Shown here in pieces: positions 11,822 to 30,936 of a DNA stretch of 32,000 bases (position 1 is the stretch's first letter; the number at the start of each line of letters is the position of its first letter). Source of the DNA: Candidatus Blochmanniella floridana (GTDB taxonomy: Bacteria; Pseudomonadota; Gammaproteobacteria; Enterobacterales; Enterobacteriaceae); the NCBI GenBank assembly GCA_000043285.1, contig BX248583.1, positions 390,001-422,000 on the forward strand, read 5' to 3'. The notes under the pieces are model-generated. The model had not been told where the DNA came from and ran no database searches. It was given only the letters and a program-made list of their open reading frames with translations. Both the position numbers and the translations under genes were made by a program.

Positions 11822-12058
11822 CTATTTTTTATAAATAGATATCTGATTATCCAGTCGTTTATTAGCTCTATTTGCTTCGTTTTTAATTTGTTCAATTGCA
11901 GGATTGAGTACATTTATATTTTCATTTACTTGATCAATTTTTCTATTTAACTTCTGTATTTCAGAAGACAATTCTGTTATTTGAGAAGTACTAGCACAAC
12001 CTATTAATATTAATGAACTGATAGTTAGCGTAAAACATATTAACTTTCTAAAATTCAT
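11822..12058 (-). CDS. lpp: Major outer membrane (Braun) lipoprotein Lpp
   Basis: 78 aa, MNFRKLICFTLTISSLILIGC with lipobox L-I-G-C. Coiled-coil body collinear with E. coli Lpp (..I..LSS.....N.K.DQ......ANRANKRLDN...YKK) and a C-terminal Lys. GGAG Shine-Dalgarno 8 nt before the ATG at 12058, so the ORF-track start at 12079 is rejected. Confidence 0.92.
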   Translation of the reverse strand: MNFRKLICFTLTISSLILIGCASTSQITELSSEIQKLNRKIDQVNENINVLNPAIEQIKNEANRANKRLDNQISIYKK

Positions 12059-12184
12059 ATTAAATTCTCCAATATACAATCACATGATTGATAAATTAAT
12101 TTAACAACATTAAATTAATTTGTAAGTTATAAAATTATTGTACAATATTGATTAATAATCACTTAATTACTAATTCATAATAAA

Positions 12185-12258
12185 TGCGTTCTAATGGACT
12201 CGAACCATCGACCTCTACCATGTCACGGTAGCACTCTAACCAACTGAGCTAAGAACGC
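12185..12258 (-). tRNA. tRNA-Val (anticodon GAC), with no encoded 3' CCA
   Basis: The reverse complement folds by hand into a cloverleaf. Acceptor GCGTTCT/AGAACGC, D arm GCTC-AGTTGGTTA-GAGT, anticodon stem CTACC/GGTAG with loop GTGACAT, T arm GATGG-TTCGAGT-CCATT, discriminator A. Very similar to remembered E. coli valV/valW, which sit in the same lpp-ribC neighbourhood. Confidence 0.9.
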
Positions 12259-12613
12259 ATATACAACAATTATATCCTGATTTTAATTATATTGTATATC
12301 ATTATTCATAGTAATATCTAAAATCATAAGTATTTGATATCCGTTAAGTTAGATAGAATTTTTATTTTAAAAACATATATTACACATATATTATAATTTT
12401 AAATCAATTTTATTAATATTAGAAATATATATTATAACATATTTAAATACACTTATTATCTAATATTATTTTAAAATAATTCATAATGTTAATAGCAGAT
12501 ATGTATTCATATAAATTAAGATATAAAATATTAATAAAATTATGATCTTTTACATAACAATCTGTTACACTACATGAAAATATAATGATCATAGTGTAAA
12601 AATAATAAAAAAT

Positions 12614-13222
12614 ATGTTTTCAGGTATTATACAGGCTGTTGTTCCTGTACATACAATTTACGAAGAACTTAATTTCAAAACATATGTGGTTATTTTTCCT
12701 CAACATTTATTATCCAATATAAAGATTGGTTCTTCTATATCTAATAACGGATGTTGTTTAACAGTAATTACCATTCAACATAATTATGTTAGTTTTAATC
12801 TAATACATGAGACATTGAAATTAACCAACATGGGTATATTACAAGCAGGAGATTTAATTAATGTAGAAGAACCAATTAAGTACCATAAAAAAATTGAAGG
12901 CCATTTAATGACTGGACATATTGATTGTACAGGAGAAATTAAAAAAATAATACATTATAAAAAAAACAAAACAATATGGATTAAAATGAAGAACAAATAT
13001 TATCAAAAATATATTATACAAAAAGGATCTATTGGGATAGACGGAGTAAGCTTAACCATCAATAAAGTATTAGGTATTTATATACGCATTTGTTTAATTC
13101 CATACACTATAAAAAAAACTACTTTAGGAACAAGGAAAATTGGTGATATAGTGAATATTGAAATCGATTTTTTTGTAAAGACCATTACAAATACAGTAGA
13201 GAGAATATTATCAAATATTTAA
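12614..13222 (+). CDS. ribC: Riboflavin synthase (alpha chain)
   Basis: 202 aa, MFSGIIQ....V, NGCCLTV, H.MTGHI, KGSIGIDGVSLT.N and IPYT...TTLG. The internal two-fold repeat is typical of riboflavin synthase. The gene is called ribC in E. coli and ribE in other nomenclatures. Confidence 0.93.
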   Translation: MFSGIIQAVVPVHTIYEELNFKTYVVIFPQHLLSNIKIGSSISNNGCCLTVITIQHNYVSFNLIHETLKLTNMGILQAGDLINVEEPIKYHKKIEGHLMTGHIDCTGEIKKIIHYKKNKTIWIKMKNKYYQKYIIQKGSIGIDGVSLTINKVLGIYIRICLIPYTIKKTTLGTRKIGDIVNIEIDFFVKTITNTVERILSNI

Positions 13223-14930: not shown

Positions 14931-15365
14931 TTGGAATCATCATTAGGGTCAGATCTGGCCCGACTTGTTAGAATATGGCGCGCTTTAATTGATTACCGAT
15001 TAAAACCATTGAAACTTACACAAACACATTGGATTACGCTACATAATATCTATCAATTACCTCCCGATCAATCACAAATTCAATTAGCAAAAGCTATAGG
15101 AATTGAACAACCATCTTTAGTGAGGACATTGGATCAACTTGAATCAAAAGGACTAATTGTGAGAAACATATGCTCTAACGATCGAAGAGCTAAAAGAATT
15201 ACATTAACAGAATTAGCTAAACCTGTCATTAATCAAGTAAATCAAGTTATTAATGTTACACGAAATGAAGTGTTTTACGGATTACGTGTCGAAGAAATAC
15301 AACAATTAAATAATATTATTGCTAAATTAGAACGCAATATAATAAATTTATATAACAAAACATAA
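14931..15365 (+). CDS. slyA: MarR-family transcriptional regulator SlyA, TTG start
   Basis: 144 aa. The N-terminal ~76 aa are almost identical to remembered E. coli SlyA ([68 protein letters not shown]). AAGGAG Shine-Dalgarno 8 nt upstream of the TTG. As far as I recall, E. coli slyA also initiates at UUG. Confidence 0.93.
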
Positions 15366-15627
15366 CTCACTTTTAAAAATTCATAATGAATTCATTCACT
15401 TTAAAAATTAATTACAATTAACATTATCAATACACATCTAAAATTATAATATTCTAAAAAATTTATATTTAATTATTATTTAACACATACATCATATATA
15501 ATATATAAATTATGTAAAATATTAAATTAAAAATTTTACAAAATAACGGCATAAAAACGGTATTTATCTTGTATTGTTTTTACAGAATAATTTATGATAT
15601 AGTGATAGATAAAAACTTATTATTATT

Positions 15628-16272
15628 ATGCTTGAATTATCTAAAATTCATAATTTAAGAAGAGAATATATATCAAAACAATTTCGTCGATCAAATTTAA
15701 CTAAAAACCCTATGCATCTTTTTTCAAAATGGTTATATGAAGCCTATTGTCAAATACCTGATCCTAATGCTATGTGCCTATCAACTGTAGATCATACAGG
15801 ACAACCATTTCAAAGACTAGTTCTATTAAAATATTTCAATGATAAAACAATAGTATTTTTCACTCATTTAAACAGCCGAAAGGCTATACATATCAATAAT
15901 AATCCCAAAATTAGTCTATGTTTTCCATGGAACATTATAAATCGTCAAATTATTATCACTGGAAGTGTTTATAAAATCTCTAAAAAAGAAGCGCAAAAAT
16001 ATTTTTATACAAGACCTAAAAATAATCAAATTAGCACATGGGCATCAAAACAATCTACCATTATTTCATCTAAAAAAGTATTAAAAAATAAATTTTTGAA
16101 ATTAAAAAAAAAATATTTTCAAAAATCTGTACCATTTCCACATTTTTGGGTGGGATATAAAATAAATATTAATAGTATGGAATTTTGGCAAGGAGGAATA
16201 TATAGATTACATGATCGTTTTTTATATAAAAAAAACAAAAAAAAATGGTATATCAATCGATTATCTCCTTAA
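15628..16272 (+). CDS. pdxH: Pyridoxamine/pyridoxine 5'-phosphate oxidase
   Basis: 214 aa with LRREY, QR.VLLK, F.T...SRKA..I..NP..SL.FPW, FWVGY....... EFWQGG..RLHDRFLY. Collinear with E. coli PdxH and upstream of tyrS as in E. coli. Confidence 0.94.
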   Translation: MLELSKIHNLRREYISKQFRRSNLTKNPMHLFSKWLYEAYCQIPDPNAMCLSTVDHTGQPFQRLVLLKYFNDKTIVFFTHLNSRKAIHINNNPKISLCFPWNIINRQIIITGSVYKISKKEAQKYFYTRPKNNQISTWASKQSTIISSKKVLKNKFLKLKKKYFQKSVPFPHFWVGYKININSMEFWQGGIYRLHDRFLYKKNKKKWYINRLSP

Positions 16273-16391
16273 AATAATTACTAATTATTACATTTAACAC
16301 AATAAATTATAATATATTGATATACAATCCAATATATTATATATTACAAAAGATGCTGATTATGTTAATAATATAAAATAGATGCATTACT

Positions 16392-17684
16392 ATGAAATAT
16401 AATAACTCAATTCATATGATTGATAATATTATTGATTATTTATATGAACGCGGTTCAATCGCTCAAATTACTGATCGAAAAAAATTAAACGCAGTATTAA
16501 ACTCACAACCAATCACCTTATACTGTGGATTTGATCCAACAGCCGATAGTTTACATATAGGACATTTAGCCCCTTTGTTATGTTTAAAACGATTTCAAAA
16601 AGCAGGACATCGTCCACTAATTTTATTAGGAGGAGCAACTGGTTTAATTGGAGATCCTAGTTTTAAAGATTCAGAGCGTAAACTTCAATCATTTAACACA
16701 ACACAAAAATGGATAAAAAAAATAAAATTGCAAATTGCTTTATTTATTGATTGTAATAGTAATAATGCATCACAAGCACATATTATCGATAATTATTCAT
16801 GGTTTTCTTCTATGAATATCTTAACTTTTTTAAGAGATATAGGAAAATTTTTTTCTATCAATAAAATGATTAATAAAGATATTATAAAAAAAAGATTAAA
16901 AAATGATAATTATGGAATTTCTTATACTGAATTTTCATATAATTTAATGCAAAGTTATGATTTCGCACATATATATAAACATTATGATGCAATATTACAA
17001 ATTGGAGGATCAGATCAATGGGGTAATATTATATCAGGAATTGACTTGATTAAACGCATGTATAAAAAAAATGCTTATGGATTAACAGTACCGTTACTAA
17101 CTAATTTTAATAACATAAAGTTTGGAAAAACAGAAAAAAATACAATATGGTTAGATCCTGAAAAAACTAGCCCTTATCAATTTTATCAATACTGGATAAA
17201 TATTGATGATAAAAGTGCATATCACTTTCTAAAGATTTTTACTGATATCTCTGTACAAGATATAAATTCATTTAAAAATAGAGATCATAGTTATTCACAA
17301 GCTCAATATATATTAGCAGAAAATATGACACAATTAGTACATGGAAAAAGGGGATTAAATATAGCACAACGTATTAGTCAAAATCTATTTTCTTATAACA
17401 TATTAAAATTAACATTAAATGATTTTCATCAATTAATTCAAGATGGCATTCCAAACATAATATTAGAAACAAATACTTCATTACAAGAAGCATTAACAAA
17501 ATCAAAATTAGCAACATCTCGATCGCAAGCTCGATATTTTATTAAATCTAATGCAATAACTATAAATGCACATAAACAATCAAAAATAGAATATATTTTT
17601 CAAGATTCAGATCGAATATATAATCTGTATACTTTATTAAAAAGAGGTAAAAAAAACTATTGCCTTATTCAATGGAACATATAA
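16392..17684 (+). CDS. tyrS: Tyrosine--tRNA ligase
   Basis: 430 aa with the HIGH motif (LHIGHL) and KMSKS-type KFGKT. GGATGLIGDPSFK, IGGSDQWGNI.SGIDL and the C-terminal S4-like domain ...LLKRGKKNYCLI.W match E. coli TyrRS. The start could alternatively be the ATG at 16413. Confidence 0.95.
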   Translation: MKYNNSIHMIDNIIDYLYERGSIAQITDRKKLNAVLNSQPITLYCGFDPTADSLHIGHLAPLLCLKRFQKAGHRPLILLGGATGLIGDPSFKDSERKLQSFNTTQKWIKKIKLQIALFIDCNSNNASQAHIIDNYSWFSSMNILTFLRDIGKFFSINKMINKDIIKKRLKNDNYGISYTEFSYNLMQSYDFAHIYKHYDAILQIGGSDQWGNIISGIDLIKRMYKKNAYGLTVPLLTNFNNIKFGKTEKNTIWLDPEKTSPYQFYQYWINIDDKSAYHFLKIFTDISVQDINSFKNRDHSYSQAQYILAENMTQLVHGKRGLNIAQRISQNLFSYNILKLTLNDFHQLIQDGIPNIILETNTSLQEALTKSKLATSRSQARYFIKSNAITINAHKQSKIEYIFQDSDRIYNLYTLLKRGKKNYCLIQWNI

Positions 17685-17742
17685 GTATTGATAATGGATT
17701 GTTTATATAAACAATCCATTATCAATACTTATATGTTCCATT
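17671..17742. terminator. 72-nt perfect palindrome (36-bp arms, no spacer) spanning the stop codons and last codons of both tyrS (+) and nth (-). The U-tract is on the plus (tyrS) side.
   Basis: 17671-17706 (AATGGAACATATAAGTATTGATAATGGATTGTTTAT) is the exact reverse complement of 17707-17742. TTTT follows at 17743-17746. The tyrS stop is at 17682-17684 and the nth stop at 17729-17731, both inside the arms. Confidence 0.8.
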
Positions 17743-18370
17743 TTTTATCAAATTCACATAAATCATTAATAATACAGTTATTACAATCTGGATTTTTAGA
17801 TTTACAAGTATAACGACCATGTTTTACTAACCATCGATGGCAATTTCTTTTAAATTCTCTTGGAACTACTGACATTAACTTTCGCTCTACAGCAATAACG
17901 TTATGACCAGAAGCGAAACAACTACGATTACAAAATCGGAATACATGAGTATCTACTGCAATAGTAGATAAACCAAAACAAACATTTAAAATAATATTAG
18001 CAGTTTTTCTACCTATTCCAGGTAAAGACTCCAATTCTAATCGTTTTTTTGGTACAATACCATTGTATTGATTTATTAACAAATTGCAAATCTTAATAAG
18101 ATTTTCGGATTTTGAATTAAATAATCCAATACATTTAATATGCTGTTTAACACCATCTACACCTAAATTCAACATAGACTGAGGAGTATTAGCAATCTTA
18201 AATAAATTCTTAGTAATTTTATTAACTTGAACATCTCGAGCCTGAGCTGATAACAACGTTGCAACAAGGCACTCAAACACAGAATGATAAACCAAATCAT
18301 CTTGATCATGCATATCATAATTATAATTTTTCAATCTACATAAAATCTGATAACGCTTCAAATTATTCAT
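17729..18370 (-). CDS. nth: Endonuclease III (DNA glycosylase/AP lyase)
   Basis: 213 aa with the HhH-GPD motif LPGIGRKTANIILN, IAVDTH.FR and the 4Fe-4S ligand pattern C-x6-C-x2-C-x5-C (CKSKNPDCNNCIINDLC). Collinear with E. coli Nth. Confidence 0.95.
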   Translation of the reverse strand: MNNLKRYQILCRLKNYNYDMHDQDDLVYHSVFECLVATLLSAQARDVQVNKITKNLFKIANTPQSMLNLGVDGVKQHIKCIGLFNSKSENLIKICNLLINQYNGIVPKKRLELESLPGIGRKTANIILNVCFGLSTIAVDTHVFRFCNRSCFASGHNVIAVERKLMSVVPREFKRNCHRWLVKHGRYTCKSKNPDCNNCIINDLCEFDKKWNI

Positions 18371-18456
18371 ACTATAACATGTATTAATTTAATATTTATA
18401 TGAACGTTAATAATATTAAACAACAACTAAATTATCTTAAATAAAAATCATTATAC

Positions 18457-19803
18457 CTACATATCAGGATAAATCATATTTTCTGGACAAACCCAATCAT
18501 CAAACTGTTTTTCAGTTACGTAACCCGATTGTATCGATGCAGCTTTTAAAGTAATTCCATTTAAATAAGCTGTTTGAGCAATTTGTGCTGATTTATCATA
18601 TCCTATATGAGAACTTAATGCTGTTACTAACATTAAAGATTTGTTTAACAATTTTTCAATTCTTTTGAATTTTGGTCTGATACCCACAATACAATAATCA
18701 TGAAAATTTTTTATACTATCTGTAAGTAATCGTATTGATTGTAAAAAATTGTAAATAATTAAAGGCCTATATGTATTTAATTGTAACTGTCCAGATGAAC
18801 CTCCCAAACTAATGCTTAAATCATTACCCATAACTTGGCAACATGACATAGTCATAGACTCACATTGCGTAGGATTAACTTTACCAGGCATAATAGAACT
18901 TCCAGGTTCATTAGCAGGAATAATCAACTCTCCCAGACCACACTGAGGACCAGATGATAACAAACGTATATCGTTTGCAATCTTCATCATGGATATAGCT
19001 AATCCCTTCAAAGTCCCATGACTATAAACTATAGCATCACACGTAGATAAAGATTCAAATTTATTAGGAGCGCTAAAAAAAGAGTGATGAATTAGTTTAG
19101 ACAAGCCTAATACAACACGTTCTGCATATTCTACATGAGCGCTAAATCCTGTCCCTACTGCCGTTCCTCCTAATGCCAATGCACTTAAATCAAGAATAGT
19201 TGATTGAATATGATTTGTATTATTTTTTAACATAAAATCCCATCCGGAAATTTCTTGCCCTAAAGTCAATGGAATAGCATCCTGCAAATGAGTACGTCCA
19301 ATTTTTATAATATTACGAAATTCAATAGATTTTTTTAAAAAAGTTTTTTGTAATAATTTAATTACAGGTATTAGTTTTGTTTTTAAATTAACTACTGCTG
19401 CAATGTGCATTGCACTAGGAAAAACATCATTTGAACTTTGACTTTTATTGACATGATCGTTTGGATGTACGACTATATTTATCTGATTTTTTCTTAATAA
19501 TTCATTTGCCCTATTTGCCAAAACTTCATTCATATTCATATTGCTTTGAGTACCAGATCCAGTTTGCCACACTGATAATGGAAATTCATTTTTATGATTG
19601 CCAGATAATATTTCATCTACTGCTGCAATAATAGCTTGAGAACGTTCATAATCAAGTAATTTTAAATCATAATTTACTTGAGCTGATACTCGTTTTATTT
19701 GAGCTAATGCTTTAATTAATTCCCAAGGCATTTTTTCTGTAGAAATATTAAAAAATTTTAAAGAAGATTCTGTTTGATCTCCCCATAATCTATTACATAT
19801 CAT
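18457..19803 (-). CDS. fumC: Class II fumarate hydratase
   Basis: 448 aa. WQTGSGTQSNMNMNEVLANRA, VHPND.VNKSQSSNDVFP, GRTHLQDA.PLTLGQE and the GSSIMPGKVNPTQCE signature match E. coli FumC. The N-terminus is about 19 aa shorter than E. coli, and an in-frame TAA lies 7 codons upstream of the ATG. Confidence 0.93.
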   Translation of the reverse strand: MICNRLWGDQTESSLKFFNISTEKMPWELIKALAQIKRVSAQVNYDLKLLDYERSQAIIAAVDEILSGNHKNEFPLSVWQTGSGTQSNMNMNEVLANRANELLRKNQINIVVHPNDHVNKSQSSNDVFPSAMHIAAVVNLKTKLIPVIKLLQKTFLKKSIEFRNIIKIGRTHLQDAIPLTLGQEISGWDFMLKNNTNHIQSTILDLSALALGGTAVGTGFSAHVEYAERVVLGLSKLIHHSFFSAPNKFESLSTCDAIVYSHGTLKGLAISMMKIANDIRLLSSGPQCGLGELIIPANEPGSSIMPGKVNPTQCESMTMSCCQVMGNDLSISLGGSSGQLQLNTYRPLIIYNFLQSIRLLTDSIKNFHDYCIVGIRPKFKRIEKLLNKSLMLVTALSSHIGYDKSAQIAQTAYLNGITLKAASIQSGYVTEKQFDDWVCPENMIYPDM

Positions 19804-19943
19804 TGGATTATCCCTATATAATTAATATACAATATATAATATATTAAATATCGGTATATTTTTCATAAAAATTATATATTTAATTAAATCACATAATTTG
19901 CATATAGTATATTTATATCAAAAATAATAAAAACTTAAAAACA

Positions 19944-21986
19944 ATGATTATATATAATCTAAATACTCACATTAAATCTTTTCTAGTATTTACCTTAATT
20001 ATAAAATTAATAATGCTAGATTCCCTAGCGTATTATAATTGTATATCTAAATTTGATACGCATAAATTCATTCATGCTTATACATATAACAATATAACTA
20101 ATACATATGACATATATCAATCTAAAATCAATAAATTATCACTAATTAATATTAATAAAAACAACAATAATATTAATTACTATTACTTTTCAAATAATAA
20201 TACTGTATTACTATCAGAGTATTATAAATATAATAATCAATCTCAAATACAAATAAAAAATGATTCAATAGATTTCTTTCATGTATTGTTAGAATATCCA
20301 TGGAATATGCAATACAAAAAAATCTTATACTTTCTGCAAATAGGGATGAAAAATTTTACAGAAAATAAAATGATTGTTTTTGGCAGCGGAAAAAGATTAG
20401 TTTATAATAAAAAACATATTATAGGATATAATGCTTGTTATCATCATCCTATATCTACTATACAATCTCAACCATATTCTATAAATATTGGAGGTGAATA
20501 TTGGTATCGAAATTTAAAATTTATATTCAATAATTATTATAATATTAACGAAATTTTTTACTCTTATAAGAATATATCGAACCATCATTATTATCAGTAT
20601 CCAAAAATTGGATATCAAATCTGTGCAAAAAGTAATTTTCCATATATCTCAGAATTTATAGGACAAATAAAATTTGAACAATGCGTTTACGATAAAACCA
20701 GAAACAATATACGATTTTGGAATGCGAATAATAAGAATCACATTCTATGTGTAAGCTTAGAATATCAACCTATTCCTATGTTTAATCTATCCATCAACAA
20801 TCGTTTTATATATAAAAAATATTGTAATACTTTTTTCACAATAACATTAAATTATCAATTTCATGTACCGTTAAAACAACAACTCAATAATGTAAATAAT
20901 AATATACAACAAAATAAAATAATATTTAATAATCATCTCAATTCCATACTAAACCCCTTCATTCCTTCTATTGATCCATATTTTATTAAAACTAACAATT
21001 CTAATGAAATTTTATTGACACAATCAAATAATGAAATAATCGGATATCCTGGAGAAAGAAAATTCATTCAAATTGAAGACTATAAAACAAATATACAATG
21101 GAATTACGAATCATTAAAAAAACAAGGCGGAAAAATTTTTCATATACACAATAATCTATATGAAATACATTTACCTAAATCTACTCATTCTATAACAGAT
21201 ATATTTCTTACTTATATTTCGGAATTAAATATAGATAATACAATACATTATACGCAACAAAAAATAAGTATTATTACAAAAAATCCCGACGAACGACAAT
21301 TACAGAATATTCAGTTAGATAGCATATATCCTGATAATATACAAGACAATCCACAATTATTTGTTACTCAGGATACAATCCCAATCAGTAATACCAGTCA
21401 AAATAATCAAAATAAGCAACTTTATGATAATGATATTACTTCAAATAATACCATATCTTCCCAAGATAACAAAAGCAATGAAAAAGATGATACAAAAACG
21501 ATTATTACACTTAATGACGACAATGATAACAATTCAAATGATTTTAACAACATACCTACGCCACCACCAATGTTATTATCTTCTAATAAGTTCGAACTTG
21601 CACAACCACCCCTATTAAGATCATTGTCTCTATCTACTATACAACAAGAAAAAAAGATTGATTTAAATACAACAGATATAAACAAACATAGTGGTCAATC
21701 CTCACTTACTGTACAACAAGATAAGTATGATGATGAAAATCAATATCATTCTAATCATAATATAAATGAATCAAATAACACTGATTTAGCTTGTCGTTTA
21801 TTAATACATAAAAAAACTAATTTTTTATCAATCAATACAAATGCATATGTAGAAAATTTAGAAAAGTCTATATTAGAAAGAAAAAAAATCAAACGTATGA
21901 GTGATATGGAAAAGATTTTTAATAAATTACGTATTACTCAATCACAGTCATCTATTGATGAATCTACAACAACAGATGACAGTTAA
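19944..21986 (+). CDS. Putative inverse autotransporter (intimin/invasin-family outer-membrane protein). It has an N-terminal hydrophobic leader, a beta-barrel-like region at about aa 115-313, one invasin-like proximal passenger segment, then an N/D/Q-rich low-complexity C-terminal half.
   Basis: Uninterrupted 680-codon ORF. Ordered motifs match remembered invasin/intimin beta-domains: LLEYPW..ILYFLQIGMKN....FGSGKR; SINIGGEYWYRNLKFIFNNY; FPYISEFIGQIKFEQCVYD; SLEYQPIPMFNLSI; ITLNYQFHVPLKQQL; then NIQWNYESLKKQGGKIFH. There is no obvious Shine-Dalgarno, so the start codon is uncertain. No search was run. Confidence 0.6.
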   Translation: MIIYNLNTHIKSFLVFTLIIKLIMLDSLAYYNCISKFDTHKFIHAYTYNNITNTYDIYQSKINKLSLININKNNNNINYYYFSNNNTVLLSEYYKYNNQSQIQIKNDSIDFFHVLLEYPWNMQYKKILYFLQIGMKNFTENKMIVFGSGKRLVYNKKHIIGYNACYHHPISTIQSQPYSINIGGEYWYRNLKFIFNNYYNINEIFYSYKNISNHHYYQYPKIGYQICAKSNFPYISEFIGQIKFEQCVYDKTRNNIRFWNANNKNHILCVSLEYQPIPMFNLSINNRFIYKKYCNTFFTITLNYQFHVPLKQQLNNVNNNIQQNKIIFNNHLNSILNPFIPSIDPYFIKTNNSNEILLTQSNNEIIGYPGERKFIQIEDYKTNIQWNYESLKKQGGKIFHIHNNLYEIHLPKSTHSITDIFLTYISELNIDNTIHYTQQKISIITKNPDERQLQNIQLDSIYPDNIQDNPQLFVTQDTIPISNTSQNNQNKQLYDNDITSNNTISSQDNKSNEKDDTKTIITLNDDNDNNSNDFNNIPTPPPMLLSSNKFELAQPPLLRSLSLSTIQQEKKIDLNTTDINKHSGQSSLTVQQDKYDDENQYHSNHNINESNNTDLACRLLIHKKTNFLSINTNAYVENLEKSILERKKIKRMSDMEKIFNKLRITQSQSSIDESTTTDDS

Positions 21987-22018
21987 TATAATATATAAAA
22001 ATATATTAATAATAAAAA

Positions 22019-22118
22019 AAGCAAATCTGAATCTTGGCTAGGAATAAATCAACAAAACCATTGTGATTAATCACAATGGTTTTGTTGATTTATTCCTAGC
22101 CAAGATTCAGATTTGCTT
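22019..22118. terminator. 100-nt perfect palindrome (50-bp arms, no spacer) between the 680-aa ORF (+) and ubiX (-). The right arm encodes the last 16 codons of ubiX, and the ubiX stop codon sits at the palindrome centre. The U-tract is on the minus (ubiX) side.
   Basis: 22019-22068 (AAGCAAATCTGAATCTTGGCTAGGAATAAATCAACAAAACCATTGTGATT) is the exact reverse complement of 22069-22118, checked base by base. An A-run at 22011-22018 gives a U-run after the stem on the minus-strand transcript. Confidence 0.8.
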
Positions 22119-22666
22119 AAGGGATCAGAATAAATACCAAATAAATTTAACATTCTTATTACACTATAGTATACAATATCATCTATAGTTTTAGGATTTG
22201 TATAATATGCTGGAACTGGAGGCATAATTACAGCTCCAAATTCAGCTAATTTTACCATAGTTCTCAAATGCCCCACATGTAAAGGAGTTTCTCTAATTAT
22301 TAAAACTAATTTTCTTTTTTCTTTCAACATAACATCCGCAACACGACTAATTAATGATGACGTCACACCTGATTTAATTTCTGACATTGTTTTAATTGAA
22401 CACGGAGCTATCAACATCCCTAAAGTTTTATATGAACCACTAGATATAATGGCCCCAATATCTTGAGAAAAATATACAAAATCTGCCATTTTTTGTATAG
22501 ATTGACGATGAATATTTAGTTCGTGTTTCAATGTAACTAAAGCATTACGTGTTACAACAAGATGAGATTCTATATTATATTTCTTCAATATAGACAAAGC
22601 TTTAATTCCATAAATTCCTCCAGAAGCTCCTGATATTCCAACAATTAAACGTAATTTTCTACACAT
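22067..22666 (-). CDS. ubiX: Flavin prenyltransferase UbiX
   Basis: 199 aa. LIVGISGASG.IYG, SSGS..TLGM.I.PCSIKT, V.LKE.R.LVL..RETPLH.GHLR.M...AE.GAVIMPPVPA.Y matches E. coli UbiX. The C-terminus is a few residues longer than in E. coli. Confidence 0.94.
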   Translation of the reverse strand: MCRKLRLIVGISGASGGIYGIKALSILKKYNIESHLVVTRNALVTLKHELNIHRQSIQKMADFVYFSQDIGAIISSGSYKTLGMLIAPCSIKTMSEIKSGVTSSLISRVADVMLKEKRKLVLIIRETPLHVGHLRTMVKLAEFGAVIMPPVPAYYTNPKTIDDIVYYSVIRMLNLFGIYSDPLSKSESWLGINQQNHCD

Positions 22667-22729
22667 AATTACCTTCCAATATCAAAATAATACAATATTT
22701 TTCATCTATCAAATATTTATCAACACATA

Positions 22730-23506
22730 TTAATTACTAATTAAAAATAGCTCATTAACCTTCCTTAATGACTCTGGAGTATCTACACTGATATTACGTA
22801 TATTATCCATTACAGACACATATATTGTTTCTCCATTCCATAGTATTCGTAATTGCTCAAGCATTTCATATTTCTCTAACGAACTTTTAATCCAGTTCAT
22901 ATAACGACTCAGAAAATTAACACGATAAGCATAAATCCCAATATGACGTAACCATATACCTAATTCTTGATTGAAATCATGATTAATGCTCATCCAAGGA
23001 ATCATCGAACGAGAAAAATATAAAGCAACACCATATATATTTACAACAACTTTAACGATATTACTATCTATTACTTCGTTATAAAAAAATATTGGAGTAG
23101 CTAACGTTGATACACTAATATTATTAGAGGTAGTCATATTAAAAACATCAACTATTTGATGAATCATATATGATGAAATTAAAGGTTCATCACCTTGTAA
23201 TTGTACAATGATTTGATCATCTGCAAATCTATAACGTTTAACGATTTCTGAAATACGTTCAGTTCCTGATTGATGATCAGAGTAAGTTAAACACACTTCA
23301 ACTTTATCTCCAAAAGAATAATATTCATACTCAACTATTTGTTTTATAGAAACACTATCAGTAGCTACTATTATTTTAGTAGTTTTAGTGGTTAACGCCT
23401 TTTCTATAACTCGTATAATCATAGGTTTACCCTGAATATCAGCCAACAATTTTCCAGGAAAACGAGAGGAAAAAAACCGAGCAGGAATAATGATTATAAA
23501 ATTCAT
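22730..23506 (-). CDS. kdsB: 3-deoxy-manno-octulosonate cytidylyltransferase (CMP-Kdo synthetase)
   Basis: 258 aa. IIIPAR..S.R.PGK.L.DI.GKPMI, HQSGTERI.E, VQLQGDEPLI, ALYFSR..IPW, RH.GIY.YR, LE..EMLEQLR.LW.GE.I.V match E. coli KdsB. Confidence 0.94.
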   Translation of the reverse strand: MNFIIIIPARFFSSRFPGKLLADIQGKPMIIRVIEKALTTKTTKIIVATDSVSIKQIVEYEYYSFGDKVEVCLTYSDHQSGTERISEIVKRYRFADDQIIVQLQGDEPLISSYMIHQIVDVFNMTTSNNISVSTLATPIFFYNEVIDSNIVKVVVNIYGVALYFSRSMIPWMSINHDFNQELGIWLRHIGIYAYRVNFLSRYMNWIKSSLEKYEMLEQLRILWNGETIYVSVMDNIRNISVDTPESLRKVNELFLISN

Positions 23507-23694
23507 TGGTTATCTATAATTTTGCAATTCAAATATCGAATTTGATTTTTTAATAAAACTGGAATTCCTTGTTTTAGAGGAAAACTAATGTTCTCAATAT
23601 TACAAATTAATTCTGTTTCTGTATCATTCATAAATAACCGTGTATAACAAAAAGGACAAACGATAATTTCTAATAATTTTTTTTGCATAATCAC
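23503..23694 (-). CDS. ycaR: Trm112/UPF0434-family small zinc-ribbon protein YcaR
   Basis: 63 aa. LLEII.CP.C...L.......ELIC......FPL..GIPVLL matches E. coli YcaR. ATGA overlap with kdsB, and lpxK-ycaR-kdsB order as in E. coli. Confidence 0.88.
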   Translation of the reverse strand: MIMQKKLLEIIVCPFCYTRLFMNDTETELICNIENISFPLKQGIPVLLKNQIRYLNCKIIDNQ

Positions 23695-23749
23695 ACACTA
23701 TCATCATTAATATGTCACAATTATAAAATTAATGCTCAAACACTCCATT

Positions 23750-24751
23750 TTAATTATTTTTATAATACTGAATTGTACTCTCTATCTTAGATAATAATTT
23801 TTTTGTATCTTCTTGATGTATGTTAACATCTATATGTACATACCACCAGTTTTCATGCGCAAAATCTAAACATTTAATAGCATCTTTTTCTGTCATTAAT
23901 AACATTTCATTTCCAGAAGTAAGAGAAGATAACATTATTTCAGAATACATATGATGATCAGAAAATTCTATTGTTTTGATAGGAAAAATTCCATAATCTT
24001 GTAAAGTCATAAAAAATTGCTTCGGATATCCAATTCCAGCTATAGCTACAACGTCCTTCAATGGTTGAATAGGTCGAATCTCCCCTGTTACAAGATTAAT
24101 TATTGATCTAGGACATAACTGCATTAGTATTGCACCAGATTGAATATCATTACTTAATCCATTAATAATAATTGCCTGCACTGTATTTAGTCGAGTAATT
24201 CGTTCACGCATAGGCCCAGCCGGTAACCAACAACCATTTCCGAAACGACGTAGACTATGTACAACCACCCACTCTATATCTCTAAAAAGAGCATAATGTT
24301 GCAACCCATCATCACTAATGATTATATCTAATAAAGGTTGCTTTTTTAATAAAGCAGATACAGCTTTAACTCTGTTAGGAGAAACAGATACTAATACACC
24401 CGTCCTCCTCCAAATAAGTAATGGTTCATCTCCACATTTTTTACTACAACTAGTACTATTAATAATAATCGGATACTTATCAGACCTACCGCCATAACCC
24501 CTAGAAACTACTCCAACTCTCCAACCACGAGTCTTTAATTGATCAATTAACCATAATACCATGGGAGTTTTTCCGTTACCTCCAATAGTTAAATTTCCAA
24601 TAACTATAATAGGCACTGAAAATCGATATACTTTACGCCATCCATATTTATAACTAATGCGATTTAACGTACTGAAAAATCCATATACCCAAGAAAAAGG
24701 AAGTAAAAATAAATAACATAATGATGAACCAAACCAAATATTAAACAACAT
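23750..24751 (-). CDS. lpxK: Tetraacyldisaccharide 4'-kinase (lipid A biosynthesis)
   Basis: 333 aa. LLPFSW.YG, P-loop VIGNLT.GGNGKTP.V.WL, VVSRGYGG, GDEP, DDGLQHY.L.RD.E, RRFGNG.WLPAGPMRE, MTEKDA.KC, ENWWY match E. coli LpxK. Confidence 0.94.
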   Translation of the reverse strand: MLFNIWFGSSLCYLFLLPFSWVYGFFSTLNRISYKYGWRKVYRFSVPIIVIGNLTIGGNGKTPMVLWLIDQLKTRGWRVGVVSRGYGGRSDKYPIIINSTSCSKKCGDEPLLIWRRTGVLVSVSPNRVKAVSALLKKQPLLDIIISDDGLQHYALFRDIEWVVVHSLRRFGNGCWLPAGPMRERITRLNTVQAIIINGLSNDIQSGAILMQLCPRSIINLVTGEIRPIQPLKDVVAIAGIGYPKQFFMTLQDYGIFPIKTIEFSDHHMYSEIMLSSLTSGNEMLLMTEKDAIKCLDFAHENWWYVHIDVNIHQEDTKKLLSKIESTIQYYKNN

Positions 24752-26502
24752 CAGGAAAATTGAAATTTATATAACTGAGAATAAACACCTTTATGATTTA
24801 ATAAATCCACATGTATTCCTCTTTCCACAATAGATCCTCGTTCAACTACTAAAATTTCATCCGCATTTTCTATAGTAGATAAACGATGTGCAATAATTAA
24901 TGATGTTCTATTTTTCTTTAATATATTAATAGATTTATAAATAATACATTCAGATTCAGTATCCAAAGATGAAGTAGCTTCATCTAAAATTAAAATAGGA
25001 CAATTTCTTAATAAAGCCCGAGCAATTGCAATACGTTGACGTTGACCATTAGATAACAATATACCATTTTCTCCAACAATAGTATCAAACCCATTCTTCA
25101 TTTTAGAAATAAACCCCATAGCATACGCCATTTTAGCTGCTTCTTCAATAGAAGCCCTAGAATAAAATCTTGTACGTGCATATGCAATATTATTTGCAAT
25201 AGTATCATTAAATAAATATACATTTTGTGTAACTACAGATACTTGTTCTCTCAAAGAAGTAAGTGTATAATCATTTAAATTTAATCCATCAAGCAATATA
25301 CGACCCTGATACACATCATAAAAACGAGTTAATAAATTTACAATAGTAGATTTTCCAGATCCAGATCTTCCGACTAATGCTATAGTTTTTCCAGATTCAA
25401 TATTAAAATTGATATTACATAAAGATGGAGTATTTGTTTCAGGGTAAAAAAAAGTAACATTATCAAAAATAATATGTCCTTTAACTCTTTTAACGCTAAA
25501 TTTACCTATATTTTTTTCAGTTTTTAAATCTAAAATAGTAAACAAAGTTTGACAAGCTACCATTCCACGCTGAAATTGCGCACTAACATTAGTTAAAGAC
25601 TTTAATGGTTTCATTAATGCTATCATGGATGAAAAAATAACAGTAATTGTTCCAGCACTAAGCATTTCTATAACACTAGGAATACTTGCTATATATAATA
25701 CACAAGCCAATGCTAATGAAGCAACAAACTGAATTAATGGTTCAAATACAGAAGACGTTTGAACCATTTTCATAGTATATTGTCTCATACGATTACTTAA
25801 ATAATTAAATCTATTTTGCTCAAGATGTTGACCTCCAAATATTAACACTTCTTTATGACCTTTTAGCATTTGCTCTACACTATTTACAAGTTGACTCATA
25901 GAATTCTGTATCTTTTTTCCAATATCTTTAAATTTATTGGATACTAACTTAATAATTATGGATATTATCGGCATAATCAAAATTAAAACTAACGATAATT
26001 GCCAACTGTAATAAAACATCATAATACATAACCCAACAACAGATGCTCCTTCTCGAATGATAGTAATTAAAGCTCCAGAAGATGATGATGCAACTTGATC
26101 TGCATCATAAGTAATACGAGACATTAAAGTAGCAGTAGATTGTTCAATAAAAAAAGAAACCGGCATGTTCATTATATGATTAAACAAAAGTCTTCTAATA
26201 TGCATTACCACTTTTCCAGATACCCATGATATACAATAAGTTGACGCAAACCCACTCATCCCGCGCATAATCATTAAACCCATCAATACCAAAGGCATCC
26301 ACATAAAAATCGACCTATTAGCTTTCCCGAAACCTTCATCAAGCAACGGTTTCAACAACGCTAACATTAAAGAATCACTTACTGCATTTATAATTAAAGT
26401 AATAGACGCTATAATTAATCCTATTTTAAAGGGATTAATTATAGGCCAAAGACGCCGAAAGACTTTCCAATTTGATATATTACCATTATTGCAGTAATGC
26501 AT
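24751..26502 (-). CDS. msbA: Lipid A export ABC transporter (flippase) MsbA
   Basis: Collinear with E. coli MsbA from W..FRRLWP.I.PFK.GLI through Walker A GRSGSGKST, signature LS.GQRQRIAIARA and Walker B ILILDEATS.LD to the C-terminal KFQF. ATG at 26502 (583 aa) is preferred to the TTG at 26514. The TGA stop shares one base with the lpxK ATG. Confidence 0.94.
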   Translation of the reverse strand: MHYCNNGNISNWKVFRRLWPIINPFKIGLIIASITLIINAVSDSLMLALLKPLLDEGFGKANRSIFMWMPLVLMGLMIMRGMSGFASTYCISWVSGKVVMHIRRLLFNHIMNMPVSFFIEQSTATLMSRITYDADQVASSSSGALITIIREGASVVGLCIMMFYYSWQLSLVLILIMPIISIIIKLVSNKFKDIGKKIQNSMSQLVNSVEQMLKGHKEVLIFGGQHLEQNRFNYLSNRMRQYTMKMVQTSSVFEPLIQFVASLALACVLYIASIPSVIEMLSAGTITVIFSSMIALMKPLKSLTNVSAQFQRGMVACQTLFTILDLKTEKNIGKFSVKRVKGHIIFDNVTFFYPETNTPSLCNINFNIESGKTIALVGRSGSGKSTIVNLLTRFYDVYQGRILLDGLNLNDYTLTSLREQVSVVTQNVYLFNDTIANNIAYARTRFYSRASIEEAAKMAYAMGFISKMKNGFDTIVGENGILLSNGQRQRIAIARALLRNCPILILDEATSSLDTESECIIYKSINILKKNRTSLIIAHRLSTIENADEILVVERGSIVERGIHVDLLNHKGVYSQLYKFQFS

Positions 26503-26923
26503 GTATACACCCAATTACAATTCTACACTTATGCACTAATCACATTTAATAAAACTCTATAATAATGTTTATACATTGTAATTTTACAAATTACGGTCCA
26601 TTTTATACATAACAATGATACAAAATTTTGATGGTATCAAAATTACATTTAAATTTTAAAACTATATAAATATAATGATGCTATCATTTAACATAAAATT
26701 TCGTTGAACTTTATCTATAATATCTAATCCTATTAACATGCATCATATATTATGATCTATATATAAATTATATTGATATATGATCATATATCACCAAATG
26801 ACTCAAGATAAATCCATGTTGCTAAAAATTTTCTATTATTTTAATAATAGAATATATCTATTATTTTTTAACTACCAAATCATAATATAATTTATTTATA
26901 TCATAAAATTCTAAAAAAACTTC

Positions 26924-26950
26924 ACATATTAATATACTATATTAATATGT
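26924..26950 (-). terminator. Possible intrinsic terminator downstream of rpsA (13-bp AT-rich stem around a single central base)
   Basis: ACATATTAATATA (26924-26936) and TATATTAATATGT (26938-26950) are reverse complements. On the minus strand the stem is followed by GAAGTTTTTTT. The stem has only one G:C pair, so stability is doubtful. Confidence 0.35.
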
Positions 26951-26977
26951 ATTTTTTAAATAAAATATTAATAAATA

Positions 26978-28705
26978 TTATTCATGTTTAGTAGCCGCCT
27001 TAAATGCTTCAATCATAACACTAGAAAAATCATTTTTATCTTTTCCTTTTTTTTCATTATTGCTAATACCAATAATAGATTTCTTATTTAATTCATCATC
27101 ATTATATACAGATAAATTAATAACCCGATTTTTTCTATCTATTCCTTCTATTTTTGATTGTATAATATCACCTATCTGAAATGATTTAAATTTTCTCAAA
27201 AGCATATTCTTAGTCTGATTATCAATACCAGAAGCATTATGCAATACATCTAAGTAACATACACAACCAATTACAAACTCATTATCTAATGATAATGTAA
27301 TTTTTTTTGTATCATGATCTATAAAAGTAATCTTACCTGAAACAATACTGCCTTTTTTATGAATAGATAAAAAAATATTTAAAGGATCTTCTGTTAACTG
27401 TTTTATACTTAATGAAATCCGTTCACGTTCTGAATCTACTTGCAAAACTACAGCCGTAACTTCGTCTCCTTTTTTATATTGACTGATTAACTCATTATTA
27501 TTAGACACACTCCAAGCGATATCCGAAAGATGAACTAAGCCATCAATACCATCCTCTAACCCAATAAAAATCCCAAAATCAGTAATAGATTTAATTCTTC
27601 CTGTTACCCGATCACCTCGAGCATATATTTGAGAAAATCTCTGCCATGGATTAACTTTACACTGCTTTAATCCTAACGAAATTCTCCTCCTATCTTCATC
27701 TATATCCAATACCATCACTTCAATACATTCTCCTACCTCTACCACTTTAGAAGGATGAATATTTTTATTAGTCCAATCCATTTCAGAAATATGCACTAAT
27801 CCCTCCACTCCTCCTGCAATTTCAATAAAACAACCATAATCCGTTAAATTTGTAACCTTACCTGTTATCTTGTCTCCCTCTTTATAATTACGAACAATAG
27901 AAATCCATGGATCATCTTCTAATTGTTTTAACCCTAATGATACTCGAGTTCTTTCTCTATCAAATTTCAATACTTTTACAGAAATTTCATCTCCTATACT
28001 TATTATATCACTGGGATGCTTAACTCGTTTCCAAGCAATATCAGTGATATGTAATAATCCATCTATTCCTCCTAAATCGATAAAAGCACCATAATCTGTT
28101 AAATTTTTTACTACTCCTTTAATTATTATTCCTTCGTGTAACTTATGTAATAATTGATCACGTTCAGCACTATGTTCAAATTCAATTGCAGCACGTCTTG
28201 AAACAACAACATTATTACGTTTATGATCTAACTTAATAACCTTAAAATCACATGTTTGGCCTTCTAAATCTATAGAATCTTTTATTGGACGTATATCTAC
28301 CAATGAGCCTGGCAAAAATGCACGTATTCCATTTAGTTCTACTGTAAATCCACCTTTCACTTTTCCATGAATAACTCCCGTAACAGTAGTAACTTCTTGA
28401 TACGCTTTTTCAAGATATAACCAAGATTCATGTCGTTTTGCTTTTTCTCTAGATAATATAGTTTCTCCAAACCCATCTTCCACTGCATCCAGTATTACAT
28501 CAATATAATCACCTACTGTAACTTCTAATTCTCCATGAGAATTATAAAATTGATTAATAGGAATAGCAGATTCAGATTTTAGACCTGCATCAACTAAAAC
28601 TATTTCTTTAGAAATAGCTATCACCACTCCTTGAACAATAGATCCAGATTTAGTTTGAGTTTTTTTTATAGATTCTTCAAATAACTGAGCAAATGATTCT
28701 ATCAT
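26978..28705 (-). CDS. rpsA: 30S ribosomal protein S1
   Basis: Starts [11 protein letters not shown] exactly as E. coli S1 ([12 protein letters not shown]). Six S1 repeats are collinear ([101 protein letters not shown]). The GTG at 28732 in the ORF track adds 9 non-homologous residues and is rejected. Confidence 0.95.
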
Positions 28706-28772
28706 TTTAATTTTAAATTTTTCAAATAACACTCATCAAGAATCCATACTTGATAGTGATAGAGTTTATATT

Positions 28773-28802
28773 TTTTTCATCATCATCCATGATGATGAAA
28801 AA
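28773..28802. other. Hairpin-forming inverted repeat (TTTTTCATCATCAT-CC-ATGATGATGAAAAA) in the cmk-rpsA spacer
   Basis: 28773-28786 is the reverse complement of 28789-28802 (14 bp, 2-nt centre). It lies 14 nt downstream of the cmk stop and about 68 nt upstream of the rpsA start, on the transcribed (minus) strand of both. Confidence 0.35.
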
Positions 28803-28815
28803 TCTTATATAATAC

Positions 28816-29514
28816 TTAATAATTAATTATACCAATTTTTTTCTGAATAAATAATAACGCTTTATTTTCAACTTCATTTTTAGACAAATGAGTCGAATCT
28901 AAAACAAATGCATCAACTGCAGGAACTAACGGTGCTAATTGTCTATTACAATCTCGATCATCACGTTCTTTTATTTGTGATGATAAACACTTAAAATTAA
29001 CAGAAAAATTTACTTTCTGCAACTGATCTAATCGTCTTTGTGCTCTTACTTTTACAGCAGCATTTAGAAAAATTTTTACTATTGCATTAGGAAAAACTAT
29101 CGTTCCCATATCTCTTCCATCAGCAACAAGACCAGGAAATACACAAAATGTGCGTTGATATTTTAATAAAACATCACGTACTTTCGGAAAAAGTGCAATT
29201 TTAGAAGCTAAATTTCCAACAAATTCCGTATGAATATTCTTTTTGATTTCTTTATCATTACAATACACAACGAAACTATTTTTTATATTTATAAAACTAA
29301 CTTTTATCTTTGACATCAGCACCTGTAAACTATCCTCATTACACATATCTATATTATTATCCAAAGCCTCACATGCTAAAATTCGATAAATTATTCCTGA
29401 ATCTAATAAATTCCATCCAAGAATATATGCTAACTGTTTAGATAATACTCCCTTTCCTGACCCACTAGGACCATCAACGGTCACAATAGGAACAATATTA
29501 TTTATAAATTTCAT
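28816..29514 (-). CDS. cmk: Cytidylate kinase
   Basis: 232 aa. P-loop [65 protein letters not shown] match E. coli Cmk. Upstream of rpsA as in E. coli. Confidence 0.94.
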
Positions 29515-29634
29515 TCTATATATCTTTTAATATAATTATAATATCAAATTAACAAATTAAACAATAACAATAACATAATTAGATAATCTTTAAAGTTTAA
29601 ATACAACACACATCATTATATTTATCATACCCTT

Positions 29635-30936
29635 TTATAAATTATTACCAACACTCAAAAATCGATCAAAAAAATCTGGAAACGTCTTACAAACACACTT
29701 AGGATTATTTATGGTAACTGATACATTTGATAATGCTACTAAAGCAAAACACATTGCTATACGATGATCATTATAAGTATTTATAAAAGCTGATTGTATT
29801 TGAACAGGGGGAACTATATGTAAATAATCATATCCCTCTGATACTATAGCCCCTACTTTCCTTAATTCAGTAGCCATAGCATGCAAGCGATCACTTTCTT
29901 TAACACGCCAGTTATAAATATTACGTAATATCATAGGAAGATTGTTAGTAGTAAACAACGCAATCACCGCTAAAGTCATTGCTGCATCTGGAATATCATT
30001 TACATCTATATCAATGGATTTTAACATAATTCCTTTAGAACATTCTATATAATTATCACCCCAAGTAATTATTGAACCCATACGTTCTAATATATTAGCA
30101 AATTTAATATCCCCTTGTTTACTGTTTTTACCTACTCCTAATACTCGTATAGTTCCACCCTTGATTGCTGCTGCTGCCAAAAAATAAGAAGCACTCGAAG
30201 CATCTCCTTCTATTACATATTCTTGAGGAGCTTTATATATTCTATTACCTTCACAATAAAAAAATTTATAATCCTTATCATGTTGTACACAAATTCCAAA
30301 AGCTCGCATAACCGATAGAGTTATATCAATATACGGCTTAGATACCAAAGATCCTATAACTTCAATATATGTATTTTTCGATGCTAATGGAGTCATCATT
30401 AATACAGCAGATAAAAATTGACTAGAAATATCACCCTTAATAACAATATTTCCTCCACAATATCCTCCATATAATTTTACTGGTAAATGATGATCCCGTT
30501 CTATATATTCGATACGACCACCTCCTTGTCGTAAAGTATCAACTAAATGAAATATAGGCCTTTCTTTCATGCGCATATCCCCAGTTAATACAATATTATG
30601 AGATTTTATAGATAAAGCAGCAATCAGAGGCCTAATGGCAGTACCAGCATTTCCCAAAAATAAAGTAGTTTGAGTATTTTTCGATTGCAAAGAACCTCCT
30701 ACCCCTTTAATTTCACAAATTTTATGATCAGTAGATAATTTATATTTTACCCCAAGCTGTAACAAAGCAGCTAACATGTATCGTGTATCATCGCTATCAA
30801 GTAAATTGATTAAACGAGTAGCGCCAACAGATTGAGCTGCTAATAATAATGCACGATTTGATATACTTTTTGATCCAGGAAGATATATAGTACCATTTAT
30901 TTTTTTTATAGGATTTAACGTAATAAAATTTTCCAT
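29635..30936 (-). CDS. aroA: 3-phosphoshikimate 1-carboxyvinyltransferase (EPSP synthase)
   Basis: 433 aa. [20 protein letters not shown]...[69 protein letters not shown] and DHR.AMCF.L.AL match class I EPSPS. Confidence 0.95.

Follow-up and report, generated by a model that had tools for sequence, protein, structure and literature searches.

A Blochmannia inverse autotransporter with a conserved proline motif and a genus-specific C-terminal tail, a candidate host interface of ant endosymbionts

Inverse autotransporters (type Ve secretion) are defined by an N-terminal barrel followed by a C-terminal passenger, and both their secretion mechanism and the usual make-up of their passengers have been described (PMC6555100). 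Yersinia invasin (InvA) and the intimin (Eae) of enterohaemorrhagic and enteropathogenic Escherichia coli (EHEC and EPEC) belong to extracellular gut pathogens, and YchO/YchP of E. coli is a short enterobacterial member. In other type V subclasses, BimA of Burkholderia (type Vc) and IcsA and YapV (type Va) are autotransporters of cytosolic bacteria that engage the host actin machinery (PMC6555100). In Buchnera, an ancient insect endosymbiont, the colonisation of host cells depends on SyeA, a retained protein of pathogen type (Maeda et al. 2026, PMC13468123). The ant endosymbiont Blochmannia lives in the bacteriocyte cytoplasm without a symbiosomal membrane and may invade oocytes and enterocytes, the factors involved being unknown (PMC3009655). 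We analysed a stretch of 32,000 nucleotides (the window) from Candidatus Blochmanniella floridana (contig BX248583.1, positions 390,001 to 422,000 of the forward strand), in which an open reading frame (ORF) at 19944..21986 (+), with an ATG start, makes up a complete coding sequence of 680 amino acids (aa) plus stop, with the exact coordinates that an earlier reading of the DNA alone (the sequence-only reading) had given for an intact gene. The product is 100% identical to CAD83440.1 / Q7VR49, a protein of Candidatus Blochmannia floridanus (source chromosome of 705,557 bp) that has carried the name “putative adhesin” from its deposition on, and its RefSeq relatives are annotated as “inverse autotransporter beta domain-containing protein”. 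The identity as an adhesin-like inverse autotransporter is already in the database annotation and therefore not new; what appears undescribed in the literature searched is the architecture of the passenger, the genus-wide conservation of a proline motif and a C-terminal tail, and the lack of relatives of this tail elsewhere.

The assignment to type Ve was shown by homology and by structural modelling. The Pfam model PF11924 (IAT_beta) matched aa 92-323 with 73.8 bits (gathering cutoff 22.3, E=2.2e-20); it was found in 17 of the 18 orthologues introduced below, which have no further Pfam domain in common. A phmmer search of the PDB sequences returned two chains only, both of them intimin/invasin barrels: that of Yersinia invasin (beta-domain 4E1T, E=1.6e-11, query 105-315) and that of EHEC intimin (beta-domain 4E1S, E=7.6e-8). 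The strings from which the sequence-only reading had recognised such a barrel (LLEYPW.., GGEYW.., FEQ.., YQPIP.. and NYQF..) all lie within these two alignments. An initial AlphaFold2 (AF2) model built from 6 sequences was poor (mean predicted local distance difference test score, pLDDT, 37.6), and the model used here was built later from the 18 orthologues; it shows exactly 12 strands in aa 99-302, the number that had been proposed as a check, at moderate confidence (barrel block pLDDT 53-84), with the conserved NYQF as the final strand. The top three matches of the model in the PDB by Foldseek were 4e1s, 5g26 and 4e1t (E 6.6e-8 to 1e-7, target template-modelling score ~0.5). The domain order is inverted, with the barrel N-terminal and ~380 residues C-terminal of it. 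Upstream of the barrel, a hydrophobic N-terminal stretch consistent with a signal peptide was found in 18/18 orthologues (maximum 10-aa Kyte-Doolittle mean 1.95-3.81), and the variable N-rich segment between the two is presumed to be periplasmic by analogy with the family topology. The B. vafer orthologue (P0019/P0024) exists in two forms, GenBank ADV33770 of 738 aa starting 11 codons downstream of the RefSeq form of 749 aa; the GenBank start is probably wrong, because the hydrophobic N-terminus is present only in the longer form.

The protein shares with invasin and intimin the order of signal peptide, barrel and C-terminal passenger, and a 12-strand IAT_beta barrel by hidden Markov model (HMM), sequence and fold, although the identity of the barrels is only ~20%. 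The passengers differ. No LysM, Big_1/Big_2 or C-type lectin-like Pfam domain was found in the window protein at E<=10, and no LysM, Big or lectin domain in the 18 orthologues at E<=0.01, as the sequence-only reading had anticipated for bacterial immunoglobulin (Ig)-like (Big) and lectin-like domains; with the Big array, the lectin-like tip and LysM all missing, an assignment to intimin/invasin proper was rejected. In their place the Blochmannia passenger has a disordered stalk, the proline motif and a genus-specific helical/acidic tail. The bearers differ too, Blochmannia being a mutualist free in the host cytoplasm and invasin and intimin belonging to extracellular gut pathogens. The best-scoring NCBIfam model was that of E. 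coli YchO/YchP (NF007556, E=1.8e-16), and the barrels of the two proteins align (hhalign probability 97.6%, E=2.6e-12), but the alignment is confined to the barrel (profile columns 119-310) with nothing in the passenger, and the E. coli gene lies elsewhere, adjoining narL. YchO/YchP was rejected as an equivalog (59.7 bits vs a cutoff of 508; barrel-only alignment by hhalign and BLASTP), as was SinH (NF033423; 47.7 bits vs a cutoff of 999).

The strongest conservation outside the barrel was found at the far end of the passenger. From ~aa 446 on, 70-77% of the residues are polar or disorder-promoting, and the AF2 model is unstructured across aa 446-614; beyond the beta-rich domain described below, the other 235 residues of the passenger are disordered or helical. 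The N/D/S/Q-rich low-complexity region noticed from the DNA is thus present, together with its PTPPPMLL (aa 538-545) and QPPLL (aa 554-558) patches. Its first part, the acidic stalk, has 77% polar or disorder-promoting residues, a net charge of -10 and a pLDDT of ~25, and it is poorly conserved, rich in indels and between 33 and 153 aa long across the orthologues. Within this fast-evolving and indel-rich region, P538, P540 and P541 are invariant in 18/18 sequences, and the genus consensus of the motif is ~PPxPPPhP followed by a hydrophobic residue. No other PPP occurs in the 28 ORFs of the window (~9,200 codons, 26% guanine plus cytosine (GC)), in which proline makes up 3.1% of the residues. 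In four orthologues (P0006, at 7834-10200 of L003, P0016, P0017 and P0023) the stalk is longer (143-153 aa) and carries a second proline motif upstream, followed by a conserved hydrophobic patch (LP.PPP.PIILSS); judged from these sequences, this group seems to have duplicated or lengthened the region that bears the motif.

The charged K/E/R tail seen by the sequence-only reading is real, but it is not the plain low complexity it had been taken for: the C-terminal tail is a genus-specific module and, by sequence conservation, the best-conserved one outside the barrel. Its block conservation (0.57-0.77) equals that of the best barrel blocks (barrel range 0.5-0.77), and F627, E640, S669, S670 and T677 are invariant in the alignment of 18 sequences, the consensus being N.DL...LS.HKK.KFSSIGT.EHINKLEN.I.ERKK.K..SDMEKIF.KLHLTQS.SSI.ES..TDDS. 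Three amphipathic helices are predicted (about 615-627, 633-648 and 654-664; pLDDT ~45-65) and appear in both AF2 models; a basic centre (ERKKxK) is followed by a Ser-rich acidic end (S.SSI.E..T[DN]DS). When 1.84 billion representative proteins were searched, without a word filter, with a profile built from the final 75-90 residues, 15 of them matched (E 6e-35 to 4e-12). All 15 are 600-788 aa long and carry the matching part at their extreme C-terminus, and nothing beyond these orthologues was found at E<=0.001.

Between the barrel and the stalk lie a linker and a small folded domain. The linker has short helices in the AF2 model (310-315, 317-320 and 329-336) and an L-N-x-I-I-Q-P-F-I-P motif, in which F339 and P341 are invariant; by analogy with intimin and invasin it is presumed to pass back through the barrel pore. 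The domain at aa 363-445 was modelled at a block pLDDT of 63-79 with seven strands and one short helix, and G367 and E371 of its GYPGEIK motif are invariant. Foldseek matched the model to intimin D00-D0 (6tqd_A; E=0.013, prob 1.00, 92 columns, root-mean-square deviation 4.3). This match is listed without a query range and was assigned to aa 363-445 because no other folded part apart from the barrel has that size. The domain follows the linker directly and, with this weak structural support, is probably Ig-like, resembling D00 of intimin. Pfam found no Big domain here in the window protein or in the 18 orthologues. The likeness of NIQWNY..GGKIFH to the first passenger domain of invasin, claimed by the sequence-only reading, found no support at the level of sequence and weak support at that of structure (6TQD, E=0.013). 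A profile of the same domain (~21030-21278) also matched an SRPBCC-family chain, 7tmu_A (E=0.0023, 54 positions, GY..EIK.I....IQW); this match is at odds with an Ig-like fold and was treated as a chance match, which it probably is.

A word-indexed protein search returned six full-length relatives, all with IAT_beta (their sources being B. pennsylvanicus, a symbiont of Camponotus and three assemblies from read archives), and a second search with the 18-sequence profile found the same six proteins only. B. chromaiodes and further strains were added by cluster look-up, and the named orthologues from the tail-profile search were those of B. vafer (BVAF_377, “hypothetical protein”), B. ocreatus and one Blochmannia metagenome-assembled genome. 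The 18 intact orthologues that were aligned are 600-788 aa long; between deep lineages the pairwise identity is about 30-36%, with islands of conservation in a fast-evolving protein. Four other lineages (L001, L002, L003 and L006) share the gene order ribE, grx, rnt, marR-like, pdxH, tyrS, nth, fumC, inverse autotransporter, ubiX, kdsB, ycaR, lpxK, msbA, and in L005 ubiX lies just downstream of the autotransporter gene. The shared order in four other lineages implies that the synteny break is old and fixed in the genus and that the gene was present in the ancestor of Blochmannia, from which these sequences indicate it was inherited. This bears out the proposal of an old resident. B. pennsylvanicus and three further Blochmannia-type loci have an intact orthologue in the shared gene order, and B. 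chromaiodes, B. vafer, B. ocreatus and the metagenome-assembled genome have intact orthologues as well; the gene is intact in every sampled lineage, and no orthologue is shortened before the tail. Two sequences of the same 90% cluster (P0002 and P0008, both 664 aa) show 180 mismatches when compared position by position without alignment, all from linker to stalk and none in the barrel flanks or the tail, which suggests that two one-residue indels offset each other and that the sequences have not truly diverged.

The ratio of nonsynonymous to synonymous substitution rates (dN/dS) was estimated by the Nei-Gojobori method on three closely related orthologues with unsaturated dS (0.17-0.76). It was 0.18-0.19 in the barrel, 0.10-0.24 in the tail, 0.22-0.29 in the N-terminus, 0.31-0.60 in the linker plus Ig-like domain, 0.37-0.47 in stalk and spacer, and 0.27-0.32 for the whole gene. 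Eleven neighbouring housekeeping genes gave 0.05-0.35 in the closest pair; barrel and tail fall within this range and are thus constrained like ordinary genes, and the middle region is, by the same estimates, relaxed as expected of a disordered linker. The same pattern is seen between B. pennsylvanicus and B. chromaiodes, in which 15 of the 31 amino-acid differences fall in the stalk-to-spacer region, while the two differ at 2 of 84 positions in the tail and 3 of 199 in the barrel. Selection on the gene, which had been claimed from the open frame, is therefore supported by dN/dS well below 1 in every region. For each of the three outcomes named beforehand as speaking against the claim (no barrel match, broken orthologues, dN/dS ~1), the result came out in its favour.

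The explanation we favour, and hold to be moderately probable, is that a genuine gene of expressed type encodes a type Ve anchor, which holds out short elements for binding the host, either in the ant cytoplasm or when a cell is entered. The predicted N-terminal signal peptide would direct Sec export, the 12-strand barrel lies, by homology and model, in the outer membrane, where the beta-barrel assembly machinery (BAM) would insert it as in the family, and the C-terminal passenger would be exported through the barrel from N to C by the hairpin mechanism of intimin and invasin, which predicts its exposure at the surface. The QPFIP linker would stay in the pore, and one D00-type Ig-like domain would fold on the surface and help to drive export; the flexible acidic stalk may then serve as a tether presenting the proline motif (PPxPPPhP) and a 70-residue helical, Ser/acidic tip. 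These two would be candidate binding sites in place of the Big array and the lectin tip, and probable ones because they are the only strongly conserved exposed elements. The partner could be a host protein whose modules include one for proline recognition, or some other scaffold in the cytoplasm, and the function may be the positioning, persistence or cell-to-cell transfer of the symbiont. Blochmannia is naked in the host cytoplasm, so that exposed elements would meet host proteins directly. They would face those of the cytoplasm through most of the life cycle, and the surfaces of host cells while transfer takes place. Intracellular modules of eukaryotes typically bind proline motifs of this kind, and for this reason a cytoplasmic partner is ranked above an extracellular receptor; the two are not mutually exclusive. 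The outer-membrane genes kdsB, lpxK and msbA adjoin the autotransporter gene, which argues that the outer membrane is maintained.

Several points weigh against such a role. The case is one of sequence and structural model, and the gene is mentioned nowhere in the literature searched. The signal peptide was judged by a hydrophobicity heuristic, the Ig-like assignment is a single Foldseek match (E=0.013) from a moderate-confidence model, and the sequence profile of aa 363-445 gave no significant Ig-domain match against the PDB. The protein is the fastest-evolving of its neighbourhood (36% identity to B. pennsylvanicus vs 59-77% for its neighbours), and as a whole it evolves about twice as fast as they do. 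The B. floridanus form of the proline motif, PTPPPMLL, is among the weakest of the 18 versions, and proline-rich stretches may equally be plain rigid spacers. Searches of Pfam, of the PDB by profile and of the 1.84e9 proteins found no relative of the tail with known function, and the role given to the tail is for that reason a guess.

The protein might instead be a classical extracellular adhesin or invasin, active only outside cells during transfer from bacteriocytes to oocytes or, at metamorphosis, into enterocytes, with receptor binding leading to uptake as in the pairing of invasin and integrin. This would suit its membership of the intimin/invasin barrel family, the cell-invasive capacity suggested for Blochmannia, the factors of which are unknown (PMC3009655), and the precedent of a retained pathogen-type factor essential for host-cell colonisation in Buchnera (PMC13468123). 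The passenger suits it less well, having neither a Big array nor a C-type lectin-like tip; its conserved parts are a proline motif of a few residues and a helical/acidic peptide, carried by a disordered stalk. Such proline motifs, moreover, typically bind intracellular eukaryotic modules. We regard an exclusively extracellular adhesin as rather unlikely, though it deserves some weight, and it is compatible with the favoured display of host-binding elements, because one protein could serve both settings. A decaying remnant, in which only the barrel matters (e.g., for outer-membrane integrity) and a passenger without binding function drifts towards loss, would account for the fastest evolution in the neighbourhood and for a middle part that is N-rich, of low complexity, full of indels and highest in dN/dS (0.3-0.6), as under AT-biased drift. 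It would also tolerate premature stops across the ~350 codons of the passenger, yet none was seen; the C-terminus, farthest from the barrel, is conserved like the barrel core across 18 lineages with the low tail dN/dS given above, no orthologue ends before the tail, and three positions of the proline motif are invariant. The conservation data thus already disfavour decay, which we consider the least credible of all the explanations weighed here.

Two further explanations were considered. In the wider of these, the proline motif and the tip would be host-mimicking short linear motifs that a type Ve anchor displays into the ant cytoplasm and that attract parts of the cytoskeletal or trafficking apparatus (e.g., profilin, Ena/VASP, SH3 or WW proteins, or regulators of actin). 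The bacteria would thereby be positioned, shielded from autophagy or carried into oocytes; we think this distinctly doubtful. The narrower one, a mimic of an actin nucleation-promoting factor, would do in type Ve what BimA does in type Vc and IcsA in type Va, with the proline motif recruiting profilin or Ena/VASP and a tail resembling the WH2, central and acidic (WCA) regions binding actin and Arp2/3. The BimA passenger is proline-rich with WH2, and the order of proline-rich part, helices and Ser/acidic end in the Blochmannia protein recalls that of WASP/WAVE (proline-rich domain followed by the verprolin-homology, central and acidic regions, PRD-V-C-A). Furthermore, hhalign puts the second tail helix on the central region of N-WASP, though the match is not significant (P=0.14, probability 0.4%, against approximate sequences of the VCA regions of WASP/N-WASP/WAVE1/2). 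BimA also has short helical motifs on an exposed passenger, type Va/Vc autotransporters of cytosolic bacteria drive actin polymerisation (PMC6555100), and Blochmannia is cytosolic (PMC3009655). When the WH2/WCA explanation was tested, however, the profile and motif tests were all negative. Pfam found no WH2 in six tails at E<=10, the PDB profile search with the tail found no WH2, VCA or actin-binding chain (the best match being a chance-level CERT helix, E=1.2), and the tail profile matched no WASP/WAVE protein or bacterial mimic in the 1.84e9 proteins, so that neither a WH2 nor a central-acidic (CA) module was detected in the tail. The LKKV-type motif is not conserved in the 18 sequences, and the terminal aromatic (DSF) is absent from at least five lineages (B. 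floridanus, P0017, P0018, P0022 and P0023), though the acidic Ser-rich end is conserved. Arp2/3-binding acidic regions need a terminal aromatic (Trp) residue, and actin tails around Blochmannia are, to our knowledge, not on record. Short motifs can converge, yet the actin mechanism has zero positive support here and stays unsupported; we consider it very unlikely. The likeness to BimA, IcsA and YapV, all outer-membrane type V proteins of bacteria free in the host cytoplasm but of other subclasses, is one of functional analogy only. Among other motifs sought by eye, LC8 (TQT), class II SH3, PP1-docking, nuclear localisation signal and FFAT motifs were not conserved across the 18 sequences, nor was EVH1 (FPPPP), although 7/18 sequences fit an approximate form of its pattern; no specific binding partner is claimed from this inspection.

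The closest parallel in an endosymbiont is Buchnera SyeA, likewise a fast-evolving, lineage-restricted protein, which that ancient insect symbiont retained from an ancestor that was a pathogen (PMC13468123), with the host interaction of the Blochmannia protein being that of a candidate only. SyeA reaches the host cytoplasm as a secreted effector and is homologous to pathogen effectors, whereas the Blochmannia protein is predicted to be anchored in the outer membrane, and the two have no sequence relationship. The features of the gene and their coordinates are collected in Table 1.

Table 1. Predicted features of the Blochmannia floridanus inverse autotransporter; positions are those of the window.
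Feature	Amino acids	Position	Strand	Basis and remarks
Predicted Sec signal peptide	1-29	19944..20030	+	Hydrophobic core aa 14-23; possible cleavage between SLA and Y (predicted)
Variable N-rich segment	30-98	20031..20237	+	Low conservation, no Pfam match, pLDDT <50
12-stranded inverse-autotransporter beta-barrel	99-302	20238..20849	+	Pfam, PDB sequence matches, AF2, Foldseek
Linker	303-362	20850..21029	+	Short helices and L-N-x-I-I-Q-P-F-I-P motif; alignment, conservation profile, AF2
Beta-rich barrel-proximal passenger domain	363-445	21030..21278	+	AF2, Foldseek, conserved GYPGEIK and GGNI...N.Y
Disordered N/D/S/Q-rich acidic stalk	446-537	21279..21554	+	Composition, pLDDT, indels, dN/dS
Conserved proline-rich motif PTPPPMLL	538-545	21555..21578	+	Alignment of 18, motif table
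Variable spacer	546-611	21579..21776	+	Between proline motif and tail; 49-95 aa in orthologues
Second, weaker proline patch QPPLL	554-558	21603..21617	+	Not conserved across the genus
Conserved C-terminal tail	612-680	21777..21983	+	Conservation, alignment, tail profile, AF2, dN/dS

The autotransporter gene is the only large non-housekeeping coding sequence of its region, in the order pdxH, tyrS, nth, fumC, inverse autotransporter, ubiX, kdsB, ycaR-like, lpxK, msbA. We infer that its locus tag is Bfl374, because the 2006 re-annotation numbers pdxH as Bfl370, ubiX as Bfl375 and a small COG2835 protein as Bfl377 (PMC1360075) and because of this gene order. The GC content of the gene (0.217 at 20001-21000 and 0.254 at 21001-22000) lies within that of the whole window (0.22-0.32), in agreement with the earlier remark that its base composition is like the rest. 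The GC skew of the + strand is strongly negative over 15000-32000, most genes from 17.7 kb on are on the - strand, and the autotransporter gene, as the lone + strand gene of this stretch, is therefore probably transcribed against the local majority direction. A promoter scan found no excess of sites (27 vs 28 expected). Terminator-like sites in the hairpin scan numbered 2 against 0.3 expected, and a small GC-containing hairpin (ATGCTAG..CTAGCGT) at 20013-20031, within the part encoding the signal peptide, was called terminator-like on both strands. Two ORFs of 85-87 aa in other frames (21361-21618 (+) and 21422-21685 (-)) inside the low-complexity coding part are probably chance ORFs. The neighbouring fumC (18457-19803 (-)) encodes 448 aa in B. 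floridanus vs 461-467 aa in other Blochmannia; there is an in-frame stop just upstream of its ATG (region to ~19890), and the conserved N-terminal 13-19 residues (MRVEKDTMG..) are missing. The sole Rfam/ARAGORN match of the window is a tRNA-Val (GAC) at 12184-12259 (-), in the ORF-free gap 11722-12614.

Little is understood of the means by which obligate insect endosymbionts, with their tiny genomes, stay in place and pass between host cells, and this gene offers a well-defined candidate for the interface between a model ant endosymbiont and its host, with two short, strongly conserved elements that are predicted to be exposed and can be synthesised as peptides. The passenger repertoire of type Ve secretion would widen beyond Ig and lectin arrays. 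If the proline motif and the tip did prove to mimic host motifs that recruit the cytoskeletal or trafficking machinery, the protein would be the first inverse autotransporter to engage the cytoskeleton and the first device of this sort to be retained in an obligate mutualist.

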